A stretch of 62,219 nt of DNA, counting the filler, from Globobulimina sp. (lineage: Eukaryota), in the NCBI GenBank assembly GCA_003354225.1. It is 22 parts of 22 records of this genome, joined end to end, with 100 filler letters (N's around TTAATTAATTAA, not from the genome) between each part and the next. Parts side by side here need not be neighbours in the genome. Positions count along the whole stretch, not along the records: positions 11,341 to 14,075 come from PIVH01005153.1; 21 more parts are not named here. One strand, given 5' to 3'. Below the pieces are notes generated by a model. The model saw nothing but the letters and a program-made list of their open reading frames with translations, did no database searches and was not told the origin of the DNA. Of this stretch, positions 11,241-48,068 are shown piece by piece. Position 1 is the first letter of the stretch, and each line of letters opens with the position of its first letter. A program made the translations under genes and the position numbers.

Positions 11241-11341
11241 NNNNNNNNNNNNNNNNNNNNNNNNNNNNNNNNNNNNNNNNNNNNTTAATTAATTAANNNN
11301 NNNNNNNNNNNNNNNNNNNNNNNNNNNNNNNNNNNNNNNNT

Positions 11342-11461
11342 CTGTCGCATACACCGTGGTTATGTCCCAAATGTAAATCTCAAGAAATCATCAAATGCTC
11401 CGGAAATAATAACTGGAGAACATGTGATAATTGCGCTTGTATGATTTCTATTGTGCCATAA
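11342..11461 (+). CDS. 3' end of a zinc-ribbon protein
   Basis: The frame from the contig edge reads WLCPKCKSQEIIKCSGNNNWRTCDNCACMISIVP*. Confidence 0.45.
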   Translation: MSHTPWLCPKCKSQEIIKCSGNNNWRTCDNCACMISIVP

Positions 11462-11626
11462 AAATAAACGTTTCTTCAAAGTATTTCAGTCCAATTGTAC
11501 CTTTTAAACTCGTTAATCGTTTCCTAGTCATATCGGCAGAGCCCGGTTTAAACAAACCAGAGATGTTGGTTCGACTTTTAAGTTACGAAGATGACTGTGT
11601 CTAATTGTCTAATTAAGCGGCGAAGC

Positions 11627-11720
11627 GATTATGCAAATCGTCAGCTTGATTATGAAAAACGTCAGCTTGATTATGAAAAACGTCAGCCTGATTATGAAAA
11701 TCGTCAGCCTGATTATGAAA
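11627..11720 (+). repeat. 21-bp tandem array (4.5 copies, GATTATGAAAAACGTCAGCYT)
   Basis: Units start at 11627, 11648, 11669, 11690 and 11711. The array is flanked by AAGCGGCGAWGC direct repeats. Confidence 0.95.
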
Positions 11721-11816
11721 GCGGCGATGCTAAAATTAGAAGTGTAAAACCTTAAGTGTCACTCTTTCTTAACTTGAAACATTGCTCAACCAATTAAGTG
11801 GCATAGAATCCTCACA

Positions 11817-14075
11817 ATGTCTGATCCTGCGAAAGTTTTAATGAGCAAATGGAATCAAAGTCTGACAACACATAAAATATCTGATTTTGAAGCATATGAA
11901 TATTATGACAATCATACAGTAAATTCTGACGTGATTCCATTACCAGCAAAACCAAACGAAACGTTAATTTATCAAATTATAGAGACGAGAGAAACGGAGA
12001 TACGTAGCAAATTATTGCCATCCACACAGTCCAATTCAGTCGTTGTAAGTTCATCAGATAATCATTGCTCAATTAAATCATCATCAGTTTCATCAGTTTC
12101 ATCTATGGAATGGCGCCCACACAAAAAATTAAAATTAAATGATAATCGAATTGCAAAAATCGAATTTAATCATGCATACAACAAAGCGGGCGGAAATAAA
12201 TCAAATAACAATAATGATGAGAGTGATGATGATGATAACATAATGGATGATATGCAGCAAACAGAAATGAATTATTTATCAATGTTGGAGACACAAGATT
12301 TAGATGACGAAGCACATTGGTTATCAGAAACTGGTCAAGAAGCGGCAGAGACCCTTAAAACATTTTGTGTGTCATTAAAACCTGTCACTGAGGCATCGGA
12401 TGTACAGCATACATATACAGTATCCGAGGTAGAGCATATTTCGAATTGTCATTTACGTTTAGTGTGGGAATTGGTGAAAGATGGTGAGACACTTGGCGCG
12501 TTAGGTATTGTTCGTTACATTGATCATTGTCAAAAATGTGTTACTGTCTTGTGTCCCTTTCCACCAATTCAAGAATTTGTGGCTACACCACAAAAAGTTA
12601 TATATACATTTTTTTTATATCTGTACATGTTAACATCTGTACATCTTTTTATTTAGATTGTAAGCAAATTATCAGCAGCATTAACAGCTAGATTTGGTTT
12701 AAAAGCATCATTCACACCGCTTGTTACAAATAAAAAGAAGAATTTAGGAAATATTTATATCAACAGATTTATATTAACTTCTTATGCTAAAACATACGGC
12801 AGATTGCAAGCAATTTATCATTGGGGTTTAGTTCGCGGTGAACAGAATCATAGATTTTTCGCATTTACTCATAAATTGATAGATTTAGAGACACAAACTG
12901 TGGTCGAGCCATTAGAAAATGGTATTTTTATTGATGAATTTCAGCGGAGGAAAGATCTGACAACTGAGAATATTGAAAAAAATTATCCACAGTTAGCAGA
13001 CAATCAAGTATGTGACCCATTACCTGCCAAAGATTGTGAGTTTTTGCGAGAGAAAATCGGAAAGTTAAGTTATTTGAATATTATTTTGCAAATTATTTTG
13101 CATATACTATTTATTATTGCATAGTGAAAATCTTACATTATTACTGCATACTCAATCATTGCAAAGTTTATCAGCAGGCAAAATTAAAATATTTAAAAAT
13201 TATGGTGGTGTTAAACCCAATGTAATTGTTTATAGTGAACCAAAAAGTGGCAAATCTACAATTGCGAGTTTATCGCAAGCTACATATGGTATAAATGAGT
13301 TTGATGACGCAACGTCTGCAGCCAAATTAGGTGATTTTACTGTTCCTGGGCTGCATCGTCATTGGCAAGTATTGAATGGTTTATTGGGCTATGTTGAAGA
13401 TCTCGATCGATCAGGAAATAGACAGTTAGCGGGTGGTTTGTATAACTTAGTTTGGTTAACATGTGAATTTGCAGATTCAATTACATTGGGTCGTGGAACC
13501 ACGCAATCGTCAGAAGGTGCGATGTGGAGCAGTATCAATGTACCACCGAAATTTATAGAAGATAAGGATGAAGGCACAATGTCAAGGTCTCTCTTATGGT
13601 TATTTAGGGCTGTCTATAATATAAAAACGTTTTTTTTATACGGCATAAAATATATATGTACATATAGAAAGTTGCTGTGATGCACGGATTGTCAGAAATT
13701 GTTACCCGTATAAAGCAGAGAGCATTGTTCATTTTATGTTCGTTACCGGATGAAAAACGTTTAAAAAAGGCGGCGTTTATTATAGATCAATTTAAAGCAG
13801 CTATCAATGCTGACCATCCATCAATATCTAGATACGTAGATGCGCGATGTCTTGCGATGAGAATTCCTTTGTTGGCATCTGCCACAATAAAGGCAAAAAT
13901 ATTTAGAATTCCATCAAAAGTTATCATTGAAGAGACATATCAATGGGTTTTACGCAATGCAATTTGGTTGGAGACAACACACACATGCACACGCGCACAC
14001 ACACATGCACACGCGCACAAACACACACACACAAACACCTACAAACACAAACACACACACACACAAAACACATGA
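11817..14075 (+). CDS. Spliced gene for a P-loop AAA+ NTPase/helicase of mobile-element type (DUF927/Cch- or SF3/D5-like)
   Basis: Four ORFs join in frame via GT-AG introns 12597-12656, 13064-13124 and 13612-13667. Walker A YSEPKSGKST, Walker B YVEDLD, sensor SSINVPP, Arg-finger TMSRS. Confidence 0.65.
13974..14072. repeat. (CA)n-type microsatellite at contig end
   Basis: Degenerate ACAC/GCAC run. Confidence 0.95.
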
Positions 14076-23012: not shown

Positions 23013-23314
23013 ACTCATTTCTTTGTTCGCTGATCTTGATTTGAATGAAATATATATATATTTTCCAAATCAGACCAGCGAACAAATGAGAATGGTGATG
23101 AACCGGATAAACCCAGCAGTCCCTGCATGGTGACTCATTTCTTTGTTCGCTGATCTTGATTTGAATGAAATATATATATATTTTCCAAATCAGATCAGCG
23201 AACAAATGAGAATGGTGATGAACCGGATAAACCCAGCAGTCCTTGCATGGTGAGTCATTTCTTTGTTCGCTGATCTTGATTTGAATGAAATATATATATA
23301 TTTTCCAAATCAGA
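23013..23314. repeat. 120-bp tandem repeat (2.5 copies), each unit containing a 77-nt inverted repeat
   Basis: Units start at 23013, 23133 and 23253. The arms CTCATTTCTTTGTTCGCTGATCTTGATTTG and CAAATCAGATCAGCGAACAAATGAG surround a (TA)n palindrome. Confidence 0.95.
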
Positions 23315-31078: not shown

Positions 31079-31799
31079 NNNNNNNNNNNNNNNNNNNNNN
31101 NNNNNNNNNNNNNNNNNNNNNNTTAATTAATTAANNNNNNNNNNNNNNNNNNNNNNNNNNNNNNNNNNNNNNNNNNNNGGAACTCAGGCAGTGCGCGGGA
31201 AATAGGAGCTACTCCGAGGCAGCCAGCTTGTTTGACGCCATGGCGGACGCTGACTGCTCGCGCAAAGACCGGCAATTCGAGGCACTTATCCACAGAGAGG
31301 CGGCGTGCAGATTGATGCGGTCGTAGAGATGCTGCGACGTGCCCACGTTTGGGCGCGCGGTGGGAAGATCGAAAAGAGGGGAAAAGCGGGGAACCACGAA
31401 CCCATTTCTGTCATCTCGACCGGGGTGGATGTACGCCCTCCTGAACCGAAAAAATTACATCCACAGTTAATAAAAAACATCCTGTGATAATTTTGAACAT
31501 CACTCTTCAACAAGAGCGGAATTAATTATTCCCTTTGTTTGTCTTAGATTTGGTATACACTTTGTTTTCGGTTATTTTTGCATAATGCCAGATTTGTATG
31601 TTTATTTTAGCATATTCCAGATATATACTTTGGTAATTTGAGCACATGAAACTGAGCACATGATTTAACATATTATAACTTGTTTTCCTATCTTCACACT
31701 TAACTCAGCTACTTGCTTAGAAGCAACCAGAGATACTTTCTTTTTTTCAGGAATTCCGTATTCCAACGTCTAACATATAATATTCTAATTATTTCTACA

Positions 31800-33910
31800 A
31801 TGGCAACAGCAATAACCGCATTCAATTCAGTGGAAGGTTTATTGGGTCATTTAGATGATGAAGATAACCAAGTAATTGAATCCTCATTGCAATCCTTAGT
31901 AGATTTAATCCCTTACCATTGGGCAGAAATTGCCGACGAACTCACCAAAATTGAAGCCTTATCCGAAGACGACGACTTTCCATTTAGTAAATTAGCCTCG
32001 TTATTAGCGTCCAAAATATTTTTCCATATCCAATCCTATGAAGATTCACTTAACCACGCTTTATGTGCTGGGGACTTATTTAATGTCACTGAATCCTCTG
32101 ATTATGTCAAGAAATTAACAGGTTTTTACATATACACACACTTCCATCCTTGCACTCGTTTCCATACACAAACACACTGAAACATCCACAGAGCAATGCA
32201 TTGATTGTTATAGAACGTACAAGCAAACAGAATACAAAAACAAACAAGAAAGGCAGCAATTCTCCAAAGACAATGACGAGGACAGCGATTCAGACGACGA
32301 TGACGACGAAGGCAGCGATGCAAATATGGAAAATAATGAATTAAAAACCATGGACACTGAGTCGGAGGAGATCGATCCGCGTAAAATCAAAATTGTAGAA
32401 CAAGTGTTTGAATTTTGTTACGAAACCGGCGATTTTAAGCACGCCATTGGCATTGCCATTGAATGTCGAAGACTTGACAGAGTACAACAAGCCATTCAAT
32501 TGTCTGGTATGTAGCGCCTACATTACACTGCGAATTTGCGTGCACTGTGCACAGCAAACGACCGCCAATCCCCTGCAATACACAGCTGGCAAAGCGGAAA
32601 TGTTAATGCATTGTTTCAATTTATGTGAAACTGTCATCAATTCTCGCACCTTTCGAGACGAGATCTTGCGATTAATAGTGTCCTTATTCAGCAGTGGCAG
32701 TCAAGGCAATTACAACACGATTTGCCGCTGTTACTTTTATTTGGATGATACCAAGCCAATCAGTGACATATTATGGACTTTAATCAATAGCCAATCGGAC
32801 AACGACAAGACTGACACCAATCAATTGACTGCCTACCAAATCGCCTTTGATTTGACTGAATATCAAAATGACGCCTTTCTACGTGGCATTTTCAACAACA
32901 TCCCACGTCCTCCATACTCGCAATTATACCCCGAACAGAAAAAGAAAGCGCTCCCACCGCCGCCACAAGCACAGGCATTGCCAATCCCGCTCCCAGAACA
33001 AGCAGAGGACCAAGCCGCCGATATCGGCGCCACCTCTCTCAACGACGATGAGCACGACGAGCACGACACAGATATGAAGGAAACAGAGGATAAGAGCCAA
33101 TATTGGGAGGACGCCTTACTTACCAAATGGCAGCAATTGAAATCCATCCTATTGGGCGAGATCATCATCCCCAAATACTTGGATTTCTTATTCCGCAATT
33201 CGCGCAGCGACCTGTTGATCTTGAAAAAGATCAAAGACGGCATCTCCGAACGAAACAGCGTGTTGAATAACAGCCTGATTTGCTGCAACGGCATCATGCA
33301 TTGCGGCACCACCATCGACCAGTTCTTGCGCGACAATTTGGAGTGGATGGGGCGCGCTGCCCATTGGAGCAAATTCACCGCCACGGCCTCGGTGGGCATG
33401 ATCCATAACAAGCATTTGAGCGAAAGCATGAACATATTACAGCGCTACTTGCCGGGCAGCGGCGGCGGCCCTTACCAGGAAGGCGGCGCCTTATATGCGT
33501 TGGGCTTGATCCATGTGGGCGACAACAGCGATTTGACCTGTTTGAGTATCCGTTCCTATCTGTTGAAACACTTAAAATCGGCGTCCAATGAGATCTTGCA
33601 GCACGGCTCCTGTTTAGGTTTAGGATTAGCGGCCTTTGGCTACGGTACTCAGAGCGGTGCGGGCGGCGTATTGACCGCTGACGACGACGACGATGATGAG
33701 GACAGCGACGAAGACGAAGACGCCGAGAATGAGCCACAAGCGCTGCCTCCGCAGATCACCGACACACAGGCTCAGCCGTCGGAGGACAGTGTGGGGCCCT
33801 CCGCCTCCGAGATCTTGACTGAAATTCGCAACGTCTTGTTCCAAGACCGGGCGGTGCCGGGCGAGGCTGCCGGGTTGGCACTGGGGTTGATTTTATGCGG
33901 CAGTGGGAAT
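31800..33910 (+). CDS. RPN2: 26S proteasome regulatory subunit RPN2/PSMD1 (introns 32122-32191, 32507-32585), 3' truncated
   Basis: HWAEIAD, LASKIFFH, GIAIECRRLD, AYQIAFDL, GTTIDQFLRDNLEW...WSKFTATASVG, YQEGGALYALGLIH. Confidence 0.97.
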
Positions 33911-45237: not shown

Positions 45238-45645
45238 NNNNNNNNNNNNNNNNNNNNNNNNNNNNNNNNNNNNNNNNNNNNTTAATTAATTAANNNNNNN
45301 NNNNNNNNNNNNNNNNNNNNNNNNNNNNNNNNNNNNNGCTTCCGCGCAAGCTTCATTGCCGGTTAAGAGGTACTTTTTGTTCTTATCAGTTAACGTCATA
45401 AGCTGGTTGTCCCCTCCAGTTTAGTTTTTCTCTTAAAACATCATAGTGAATTTAAGAAATATCCGGTATTTAATGCAATGGATGGATTGATTGCGATGGG
45501 CTGTGCTAAAAAATTTGAATTTAAAGATGATGGATTGCCAAATATGGAGGACATACCATGGCCAACAGAACAGGCCAACAATGGCGCGTATGGCCATCCT
45601 GAGTTGTGATTAATACACAATAAATAATTAAATATAAATAACAAC

Positions 45646-46704
45646 TCACATTATGCAGCAACGTGTGCTTTGTTTTTCAACTATTTCTGTAGCATCGACA
45701 TAAACGCCATCTGATAACAAATGGTTATATTCGGCTTTATTATGAACAATTTGTTCATTTATCTCAATCCAATCACCAATTTCATCACTCTCACTTTTTT
45801 CGCTCTCTTTTTCATCACTAATTTCTTCATTTAATATTATTTGCGTTTGCGACTTTGCTGGTTCTTGCAATTGATAAATGTTGCAAATATCCTTATTATT
45901 ATTGGATTGCAATTGCCACCATTTTGTGATTTGTTTGAATATAACAATCATATGTTGGTCAATTAGGCCCTTTTCCACCGCCCACTGAGGTATCCATCCG
46001 CCATTATTCACTTGCAAAATATAGGTAATCTGCATCAATTTTATGTTTCCATTGTTTTCCGTTTCAATCTGAACTGGTTTGCCACTCCAATATAAATTTA
46101 AAGTTTTCGATTTCACATTTTTCATTTCTTGTGCTGTAATGGATAATTTCTTTTGTAATTGTTTCAGCATCGCTTCTTTCATAAATGTGCCAAAGCAACA
46201 ATATTCATCCATTTTATCGCTATATTTGGAACAAGCGATGTTTACACTCAATCGCGAAGATATCAATCCATTCAGTTTTGGATTAGTAACTGCTACATTT
46301 ATATCATAATCATAATCATCTTCATACTCCATTTCGAATTCAAGCAGAAATTGTTGTAACTTTTGCATTGTATTTAAATCATCATAATCGAAGTGGTACT
46401 TTGGCAGTGTATAACATTTGATTGCGGCTTCGGCTGTCATTGCTGGTATATATGCGACAGCCTTCCATACCTTGAATTTCTTCTTCTTGGCGTCCTCCAA
46501 ACAATGAATTGTTATATCTCGAATATGCCGGTTTCTATCATCATTCACAAGCAATTGTTGGTTGACAACAGTTTTGTGATGTTTCCAATTCTTTTTATAG
46601 TGCGAGCTATGCGTCCATTCGTAAATGCGAGATTCGACAGCATTCAGTGATTCCTTTATCTCTGTTTCATGCTTTTTGCAAAGTTTCAAAGTAAGGTGTG
46701 CCAT
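45646..46704 (-). CDS. START lipid-binding domain protein with C-terminal CaaX
   Basis: NPKLNGLISSR, ITYILQVNNGGWIPQWAV; ends in CCIM. Confidence 0.8.
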   Translation of the reverse strand: MAHLTLKLCKKHETEIKESLNAVESRIYEWTHSSHYKKNWKHHKTVVNQQLLVNDDRNRHIRDITIHCLEDAKKKKFKVWKAVAYIPAMTAEAAIKCYTLPKYHFDYDDLNTMQKLQQFLLEFEMEYEDDYDYDINVAVTNPKLNGLISSRLSVNIACSKYSDKMDEYCCFGTFMKEAMLKQLQKKLSITAQEMKNVKSKTLNLYWSGKPVQIETENNGNIKLMQITYILQVNNGGWIPQWAVEKGLIDQHMIVIFKQITKWWQLQSNNNKDICNIYQLQEPAKSQTQIILNEEISDEKESEKSESDEIGDWIEINEQIVHNKAEYNHLLSDGVYVDATEIVEKQSTRCCIM

Positions 46705-46733
46705 TTTGAGAGAGTACAGTTTTCAATAAGTTT

Positions 46734-48068
46734 TTAAGAATACCTTACAGTGTTGTCATCAACAAACCAATCAAATGGTTGCTCATTGCAATTGATTATA
46801 ACAGACTTGCTTTGCGTATATTCTCTAAATCCATCTAAACCGTTTTCTCTCCCTATTCCACTCATTTTTGTGCCTCCCCACGGCGATGACGGATCATTCC
46901 GATGGTGGTCGTTAATCCAAATAATGCCCACATCCAACTCGTTTGCAATTGTATGTGCTTTTGCAATCGAACTGGTCCATATACTCGCAGCTAAGCCATA
47001 CTTACAATTATTGGCAATCTCAATTGCATCCCTATCGTCTTTAAACTTTACTAAAACAATAACCGGACCAAATATCTCTTCCTGCACCACTCGCATATTT
47101 ACATTGCAATCACCAATTATTGTCGGCTCATAATAAAAGCCATCATTTAATTCCTTATTATCTGCAGATGCTGGTATTTTGCCACCACACAAAATGACCC
47201 CTTCTCCCGATTCGCGCACATCTTCGACGAATCCAATCACTTTGTTCCTCTGTTTCTCATTGATCAGTGGCCCAAATTGTGTGTCCATATTTTGTGGCAG
47301 GCCGCATTTAATTTTCTTTACTTTCTCCACCAACCTATCCACCACCACATCGTAGATACTTTCTTGTATTAATATGCGTGCGCCCATGATACAGGTTTGT
47401 CCGCTCGCGATAAATGAAGAAAATGCGATGCCATTCACACATTGCGTCAACATATTATTATGCACAATATCTGCAAATACAATGACTGGCGTTTTCCCGC
47501 CTAACTCCGCTGTGTAATATGCTAAATTTGCACCAGCCATCGCACCGATCACTTTGCCCGCTTCTGTCCCGGCGGTCACATCAACTTTCTTTATTAAATT
47601 CGATTCGCATAAGGTTTGCGCGCTGCGGTTACCAACACTCGTTATTACGTTAAAGACACCATTTGGGAGACCCGCAGTGCTTAATATCTGTGCGAATTCT
47701 AAAACAGAGCATGGTGCGAATTCGGATGGTTTACAAACAATGCAATTGCCCGTAGCCAGAGCGGGGGCTATTTTTTTAATGGCAATAAGCATTGGATGAT
47801 TAAACGGTGTTATTTGGGCCACAACGCCCAACGGAATACGTTGCACATAGTTGATATAATTGCCTTCGAAGGGCGGCACTGTGCCTTCGAATGTGCGTAT
47901 TAATGAGGCATAATATTCCAACCAATGTGGTAAGCGTTGTAACTGTGCGTTCATCTCACGGATTGGCCTCCCGGTTTGCAGTGATTCCATGTATGCAATA
48001 TCATACACATATTCTTTCAATAAACTAGCTGCCGCATATAATATGTACGATCGTTGACGAATATCCAT
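46734..48068 (-). CDS. Aldehyde dehydrogenase (betaine-aldehyde-DH-like), 5' truncated
   Basis: ITPFNHP, KPSE, AELGGK, ASGQTC, EEIFGPV, PWGGTKMSGIGRE. Confidence 0.95.
   Translation of the reverse strand: MDIRQRSYILYAAASLLKEYVYDIAYMESLQTGRPIREMNAQLQRLPHWLEYYASLIRTFEGTVPPFEGNYINYVQRIPLGVVAQITPFNHPMLIAIKKIAPALATGNCIVCKPSEFAPCSVLEFAQILSTAGLPNGVFNVITSVGNRSAQTLCESNLIKKVDVTAGTEAGKVIGAMAGANLAYYTAELGGKTPVIVFADIVHNNMLTQCVNGIAFSSFIASGQTCIMGARILIQESIYDVVVDRLVEKVKKIKCGLPQNMDTQFGPLINEKQRNKVIGFVEDVRESGEGVILCGGKIPASADNKELNDGFYYEPTIIGDCNVNMRVVQEEIFGPVIVLVKFKDDRDAIEIANNCKYGLAASIWTSSIAKAHTIANELDVGIIWINDHHRNDPSSPWGGTKMSGIGRENGLDGFREYTQSKSVIINCNEQPFDWFVDDNTVRYS

Follow-up and report, generated by a model that had tools for sequence, protein, structure and literature searches.

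Does the ATPase gene carried by a small contig of Globobulimina sp. drive the replication of a mobile element or virus, or does it serve its foraminiferal host? The gene sits on one isolated 2,735-bp contig (PIVH01005153.1; positions 11341-14075) within a stretch of 62,219 nucleotides of assembly GCA_003354225.1, which is referred to as the window. It had originally been predicted from the sequence that removal of three short introns joins four open reading frames (ORFs) into a replicative helicase of mobile-element type, and that this helicase forms an origin-plus-helicase module with a tandem array and a zinc-ribbon gene before it. The data presented here show a nuclear foraminiferal gene, transcribed and with introns, of which the contig covers the first ~660 codons; this gene is a member of a small, fast-evolving family seen so far only in foraminifera. 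Its product can safely be assigned to the P-loop ring ATPases. On balance, we lean towards a lineage-specific foraminiferal ATPase gene, possibly exapted from a mobile-element helicase and probably linked to chromatin.

Splicing of positions 11817-12596, 12657-13063, 13125-13611 and 13668-14075 under the standard code yielded a single frame of 693 codons, opening with an ATG at 11817 that is preceded by an in-frame stop. The first stop of the joined frame coincides with the last three bases of the contig (14073-14075) and lies inside a terminal CA microsatellite, and the gene is therefore truncated by the assembly. The predicted frame of more than 650 amino acids was thus recovered after splicing, but approximately 32 of its codons are read-through of the microsatellite, and the third junction observed in transcripts breaks it. 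The three introns as first drawn are 56-61 nt long, all GT..AG, with a GC content of 0.18-0.20; the GC content at third codon positions (GC3) of the exons is 0.24-0.30, within the 0.19-0.63 of the other ORFs in the window. An alternative genetic code (TGA or other) in place of introns was considered and found to be unneeded, as the standard code with splicing matches the homologue. This homologue, the closest relative found, is P0001 of Bolivina argentea, a protein of 1,133 amino acids colinear with all four exons. Transcript evidence was drawn from the assembled contigs of four sequencing runs (X1-X4) belonging to two studies, and expression was inferred from exon-only, spliced contigs. Run X1 accounts for 87% of the sampled words, and its contigs span introns and intergenic DNA; run X2, from the other study, contains exon sequence only, with 100% identity to the gene. 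Parts of the gene left uncovered in runs X2-X4 are uninformative. The gene comprises the following features:

11763..11816, plus strand: minimal 5' untranslated region, starting where coverage by an exon-only contig of run X2 begins
11817..12596, plus strand: exon 1, comprising a conserved N-terminal segment, a basic cluster resembling a nuclear localization signal, a low-complexity acidic stretch and the first part of the family-specific N-domain
12597..12656, plus strand: intron 1, 60 nt, GT..AG, confirmed by an exon-only contig of run X2
12657..13063, plus strand: exon 2, the remainder of the family-specific N-domain, 44% identical to P0001 residues 319-451
13064..13124, plus strand: intron 2, 61 nt, GT..AG, with support from homology only
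13125..13611, plus strand: exon 3, the P-loop ATPase core, supported by homology, motifs and spliced contigs; it ends at 13586 in the observed transcripts
13587..13667, plus strand: intron 3 as observed in spliced contigs, 81 nt, GT..AG
13668..13976, plus strand: exon 4, a helical region following the ATPase, conserved with P0001 residues 631-724, its frame open where the repeat starts
13977..14075, no strand: CA-rich microsatellite at the contig end (tandem repeat 13977-14065), containing the apparent stop 14073-14075

Lack of transcript support for its three GT-AG introns was to count against the original prediction, and here the outcome was divided. Intron 1 is confirmed as drawn: record 11 of run X2 stops at 12596, and its 17 loose letters are those of 12657-12673. 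At intron 2, a site spanned by no exon-only contig, the alignment to P0001 runs without a gap across the junction. For intron 3, the donor observed in the contigs was 13587 and not 13612, 25 nt further upstream: record 13 of run X2 connects 13586 with 13668, bridging 227 and 304 nt, and record 18 of run X3 stops at 13586 with 14 loose letters equal to 13668-13681. Record 19 of run X3 is unspliced across this site, and the in-frame donor at 13612 was seen in none of the contigs of the runs. The eight codons lost by the observed junction show conservation within the family, and exon 4, when read in the frame of the 13612 donor, is conserved as well; the in-frame form of this junction is therefore the ancestral one. 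In the acidic, GAT/GAC-rich stretch of exon 1 (12203-12236), contigs of other genes in run X3 pile up to a depth of 16, differing at 2-3 positions and continuing into foreign flanks; they cross-match through low complexity and do not represent a second copy of the gene.

To place the gene among known proteins, exon 3 was compared exhaustively by phmmer with 1,835,955,588 representative sequences. Only four proteins were returned at E <= 0.001, all of them from B. argentea (EukProt); they are mutually 24-29% identical, and each forms a cluster of one member. The four exons match P0001 in order: exon 1 residues 7-318 (34% identity, E 8e-52), exon 2 residues 319-451 (44%, E 2e-42), exon 3 residues 453-618 (about 55%, E 2e-61) and exon 4 residues 631-724 (44%, E 1e-27). 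Junctions 1 and 2 are gapless in this alignment, and at junction 3 the window protein is 12 residues shorter. P0001 runs approximately 400 residues past the window protein and ends in a bromodomain (PF00439; residues 1010-1090, E 2.6e-15), and a second B. argentea protein, P0003 (1,072 amino acids), gave a weak bromodomain match (E 0.033). The exons are 34-57% identical to the closest Bolivina relative, compared to 82% for an aldehyde dehydrogenase encoded on a different contig of the window; this gap points to rapid evolution of the family or to P0001 being a paralogue. Scans with the family alignment confirmed no relative in viral (0 of 107), metagenome (0 of 122) or prokaryote (0 of 81) contigs; exon 3 alone yielded 0 confirmed of 594 metagenome contigs, and P0001 had no tblastn match in phages or plasmids. 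A word-index profile search with a family alignment, dominated by low-complexity words, recovered nothing from its 7998 candidates beyond the first sequence of that alignment.

The order of ATPase motifs, as had been proposed, was borne out. Walker A (SEPKSGKST) lies at 13234-13260 and Walker B (YVEDLD) at 13390-13407, followed by the SINVPP segment at 13531-13548, with its sensor-like Asn codon at 13537-13539, and by M-S-R at 13579-13587, in which the Arg resembling an arginine finger is encoded at 13585-13587. The Lys-Ser of Walker A, the Glu-Asp of Walker B, the Asn and the Ser-Arg are invariant in all five family sequences. The same five-sequence core alignment shows further invariant positions: a G-G before strand 1, the Pro of Walker A, a Tyr-Gly after the P-loop helix, R-x-G-N and G-G after the Walker B Glu-Asp, and D-x-G-x-x-S-R; the invariant Asn ends a T-x-N-x-x-P strand. 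From Lys to Glu-Asp there are 48 residues, from Glu-Asp to Asn 46 and from Asn to Arg 16, an arrangement that matches ring ATPases of the AAA+/SF3 (superfamily 3) kind. Similar spacings occur in SV40 LTag, papillomavirus E1 and AAV Rep. The core displays the features of P-loop NTPases of the ASCE (additional strand, catalytic E) division, namely a Walker A of the form GxxxxGK[ST], an acidic pair in Walker B, a polar sensor and an Arg, and the ten best named matches of the ATPase part in the protein atlas all fall in one clan. The preceding domain, in contrast to what had been suggested, is not characterized by an HWG motif: only its Gly is common to the family alignment.

Which ATPase family stands closest was a more difficult question. 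Searches of Pfam, PHROGs, NCBIfam and PDB sequences with the exons and the family profiles gave nothing significant. The Pfam model of DUF927 (PF06048, gathering cut-off 22.6 bits) matched one of the five family members, the core segment of P0001, at E 0.0068 and 16.5 bits over positions 194-265 of its 284, which is below the cut-off; the full-length family proteins gave no DUF927 match in Pfam. For comparison by hhalign, alignments were built from Pfam-matched loci of prokaryote genomes, those of DUF927 coming from two phyla, that of a Staphylococcus genome (18 of 401 genomes) and an archaeal one (10 of 301 genomes). The family core aligned to DUF927 with a probability of 87.2% over 118 columns when the 13 of 20 loci with a canonical Walker A were used, and with 66-68% over 65-152 columns when 30 of 32 ORFs were used, in register from Walker A through the Arg. 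Against the other families the probability was 64.8% for the D5-like DUF5906 (30 columns), 42.6% for VapE (95 columns), 36.7% for MCM (20 columns), 17.3% for AAA_14 (72 columns) and 12.4% for DnaB_C (30 columns), with reversed targets as a control at 0.1-0.5%. For MCM, IstB and DnaB-type helicases, hhalign found no similarity extending past the Walker A region. When the stringency was lowered, hhalign paired the N..P....D.G..SR block of the family with N.lP....d...RR in DUF5906 and with the TTN block in VapE. In the protein atlas, which provides leads from a language model, 12 of 30 matches of the ATPase part belonged to a DUF927-bearing set, the top matches of this part being AAA_14 (0.95) and nSTAND3 (0.94); for the N-domain, which contains no P-loop, 15 of 30 matches fell in a DUF927 set, at a score of 0.92 and with only 141-145 shared features.

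DUF927 proteins are classed among the putative replicative SF3 helicases of mobile elements in one study (PMC4889955), and in another (PMC5862659) the domain is presented as an ATPase that occurs joined to mobile-element primases, one member, from a staphylococcal island, having been shown to be a helicase. The family described here resembles these proteins in having an N-terminal domain followed by a P-loop core, and in the same succession of Walker A, an S-x-aromatic-G turn, Walker B, a Thr-rich strand and a Gly..Arg finger; it is with them that the best profile and Pfam resemblance was found, as well as atlas leads for both halves of the protein. It differs from them in its third motif (T-x-N, as opposed to T-G-E), in a match that stays below the Pfam cut-off and in an N-domain that cannot be aligned to theirs. 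Moreover, they are bacterial and archaeal, whereas the present gene has a eukaryote host, introns, no detected primase domain and, in its Bolivina homologues, a C-terminal bromodomain. The D5-like or P4-alpha-like SF3 proteins (DUF5906, PF19263) and the VapE-like proteins (PF05272) share the motif order A, B, C and Arg finger, and an N-x-x-P ... D-x-G-x-x-(S/R)-R block which aligns opposite theirs at low stringency only; in the family, however, neither Pfam model matches and no D5_N or primase domain was found, and the P4 alpha protein alone scored 0.6% against the family core in hhalign. Among eukaryotic proteins, the AAA+ bromodomain ATPases of the ATAD2/Yta7 type are chromatin-directed and combine, as the Bolivina homologues do, an ATPase and a bromodomain in one protein. 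In Pfam, however, no family member matches AAA (PF00004), and the Bolivina bromodomain forms the very C-terminus, behind one divergent P-loop core. The motif order attributed to DUF927 and SF3 helicases is thus present and the resemblance to them is the best obtained, but it is sub-threshold in Pfam and its hhalign signal is lost without the Walker A segment. Judged from sequence comparison, the best though still unproven lead is a kinship to helicases of the DUF927, D5 or VapE type, in our estimate somewhat more probably right than wrong.

The original prediction also drew on the surroundings of the gene. The following features lie upstream of it:

11241..11340, no strand: linker of 44 N + TTAATTAATTAA + 44 N, parting the gene's contig from an unrelated contig, recognized by the motif and the N runs
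11341..11461, plus strand: Cys-rich CxxC...CxxC tail, the 3' end of an upstream gene (39 codons and a stop), cut by the contig start
11627..11720, no strand: tandem array of 4.5 copies of a 21-bp unit (94% matches), with GCGGCGA motifs on both sides

The window splits at its N runs into 22 contigs of 2,730-2,735 bp each, arranged in descending order with 100 bases between consecutive ones. The motif TTAATTAATTAA has 22 matches in the window, compared to 0.05 expected by chance; 21 of them are at linkers, the one linker examined reading 44 N + TTAATTAATTAA + 44 N, and the remaining match is at 1398, within the first contig. The window is a pseudo-scaffold in which small, unplaced contigs follow one another without being neighbours in the genome. 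Since the contigs are joined by linkers, those next to the gene's contig are not syntenic with it and provide no wider context; gene neighbourhood read across such linkers is an artefact without meaning, which is a lesson of method. The other 21 contigs of the window contain no further copy of the ATPase gene, and Rfam found no RNA in the window.

The phased tandem array is real; its unit has four matches, compared to 0.01 expected by chance, and it ends 97 bp before the ATG. Its role as an iteron-bearing origin did not survive the depth data, in which the array bin of run X1 stands at 33 and the contigs with the gene at 6.05-6.8, approximately five times lower. In the same run, three loose ends leave the array and continue into different sequence, where a similar GCGGCGA flank recurs. 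Its excess of depth and its several flanks identify the array as a dispersed repeat without a tie to the gene; the repeats of an iteron-type origin are specific to their replicon and bound by its initiator, and by depth and by its three alternative flanks this array is not specific to the locus. It is absent from the other 21 contigs of the window. As for the presumed zinc-ribbon gene, what is present is the 39-codon Cys-rich tail, with Pfam matches below threshold only (E 0.013, 15.5 bits against a cut-off of 29). A run X1 contig reaches 1217 nt further upstream of this fragment, and the depth of run X1 is uniform between it and the ATPase gene.

Several results count against the reading we favour. 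No family member reaches a Pfam or NCBIfam cut-off, and the profiles found nothing below E 0.06 among PDB sequences, none passing the default of 0.001. IstB, an unrelated AAA+ family, aligned to the core with 89.6% over 35 Walker A columns alone, and hhalign probabilities therefore discriminate little; in a control from which the Walker A segment was removed, no family stood clearly above the column-shuffle null (best 20.8, null maximum ~20 in 60 shuffles), and a badly aligned DUF927 set of 24 sequences gave 22.6%. A hidden Markov model (HMM) of the family reached at most 5.4 bits on 141 family ORFs, and with the DUF927 HMM, P0001 scored 7.9 bits and the window protein 0.4. Between the N-domain and DUF927 no profile similarity was found by hhalign (1.3%). 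AlphaFold models were of low confidence, with a pLDDT (predicted local distance difference test) of 34.7 for P0001 and 32.6 for exon 3, too poor for a fold search; a predicted complex of three exon 3 copies scored 0.01, the fold of the partner itself being uncertain. The bromodomain was seen only in the Bolivina homologues, and the window contig ends approximately 400 codons before the homologous position. The window copy itself may be of mobile origin. In a rival reading, the core bears no specific relationship to SF3 or DUF927 helicases and is a P-loop NTPase of a novel or STAND/AAA_14-like kind, its motif order being common to the ASCE class. This agrees with the top atlas matches of the ATPase part, with the disappearance of profile similarity once the Walker A segment is removed and with the failure to reach any family threshold. 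We nevertheless hold it to be unlikely: AAA_14 itself gave only 17% in hhalign, long alignments in register to the Arg were obtained only with DUF927, DUF5906 and VapE, and the N-domain, devoid of a P-loop, independently points to atlas clusters of DUF927. The observed third junction is a further adverse point, as joining 13586 to 13668 retains the Arg codon (AG/A) and shifts the frame, so that a TGA follows three codons on (13678-13680) and the product has 553 codons. The window copy may accordingly make a truncated product or be decaying. A copy that is decaying, or regulated-unproductive, with a donor inside the Arg codon and only the N-domain and ATPase core made, is consistent with the bridging contig of run X2 and the loose end in run X3, which come from two studies, with the stop of the resulting frame at codon 553 and with the presence of donor 13612 in no contig. 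It is a scenario we regard as possible but doubtful, since contigs drop minor isoforms and an in-frame form may exist, the frame of exon 4 is open and 44% identical to P0001, and the catalytic residues are all intact, which argues for ongoing selection. At 13678-13682 the premature TGA overlaps by one base, in the form TGATG, an ATG (13680-13682) in the conserved frame of exon 4; this may be due to chance, or to re-initiation by which the C-terminal part would be made separately.

The remaining scenario is the one from which the question arose, namely that the gene encodes a helicase that drives the replication of an endogenous virus or self-replicating element of the foraminifer, with the 21-bp array as its origin; a C-terminal bromodomain could then tether the element to host chromatin. 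The best, albeit weak, resemblances of the core are indeed to helicase families that are nearly confined to phages, plasmids and integrative elements (PMC4889955, PMC5862659). The family is patchy and fast-evolving and has several paralogues, its exons falling well behind the housekeeping enzyme in identity, and a direct-repeat array does lie just upstream of the ATG. No element is visible, however: the contig measures 2.7 kb and contains no capsid, polymerase or integrase gene within its 2,735 bp, its neighbours in the window are artefacts of assembly, and the array, at approximately five times the depth of the gene and with other flanks, is untied from it. The scans of viral, metagenome and prokaryote contigs and of phages and plasmids described above confirmed no relative, the other 21 contigs of the window hold no copy, and the Bolivina clusters of one member each give no sign of a high-copy family. 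An origin-plus-helicase module is thus unsupported by the dispersed array, the artefactual context and the lack of a viral, phage or plasmid relative in these searches, and we consider this scenario quite improbable.

A host gene, lineage-specific to foraminifera, accounts better for the spliceosomal introns, the native base composition, the fusion to a chromatin reader and the uniform depth shared with the upstream fragment. The four paralogues in B. argentea, deeply divergent, transcribed and each a single-member cluster, one of them with a clear and one with a weak bromodomain, therefore look more like a host gene family. In the window the architecture consists of a short conserved N-terminus with a basic cluster, an N-domain of ~230 amino acids, the P-loop ATPase core and a helical region; in the Bolivina homologues only, a further ~400 amino acids follow, with the bromodomain at their end. 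In such a protein, the Lys-Ser of Walker A and the Glu-Asp of Walker B would bind and hydrolyse NTP (nucleoside triphosphate), the invariant Asn would sense the gamma-phosphate, and the invariant Arg, 16 residues after it, would act in trans between the subunits of a ring. The bromodomain would hold this motor on acetylated chromatin, making the protein a candidate chromatin-tethered DNA-dependent ATPase or helicase. The likeliest source of its core is an SF3-type or DUF927-type helicase of a mobile element that was exapted by the host, an ancestry which the comparisons suggest but do not demonstrate. A bolder formulation would be that foraminifera carry the first eukaryotic descendants of DUF927/SF3-type mobile-element helicases, fused to a bromodomain and serving either as a domesticated chromatin-tethered helicase or as the initiator-helicase of an undescribed episome or endogenous virus riding acetylated chromatin; in this full form we think it unlikely. 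Should the kinship be true, a prokaryote- or virus-type replicative helicase would have been captured by a eukaryote and wired to a reader of histone acetylation. No description of the combination 'bromodomain' and 'superfamily 3 helicase' was found in the literature, the papers retrieved for foraminifera and bromodomain being irrelevant, and the family is of moderate interest as a new domain combination. It marks a lineage-specific piece of foraminiferal chromatin or replication biology, in genomes that are barely annotated.

The other contigs of the window carry ordinary eukaryotic genes, for RPN2, endonuclease V, a glycosyltransferase and an aldehyde dehydrogenase. The last of these is nearly complete (Pfam E 1e-136) and is encoded on the minus strand by an ORF at 46737-48068 in the contig 45338-48068; it is 82% identical to its counterpart in B. 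argentea and 74% to that in Nonionella stella, which places the source of the window among the foraminifera, at no great distance from these two species. The RPN2 fragment (26S proteasome subunit; 31179-33910) stands out by a GC3 of 0.63 and a GC content of 0.51, the other ORFs of the window having a GC3 of 0.19-0.43, and this may reflect either the strong codon bias of a highly expressed gene or a contig of another organism. The strongest tandem repeat of the window, unrelated to the ATPase gene, lies at 23013-23314 and consists of 2.5 copies of a 120-bp unit with 98% matches (score 583).

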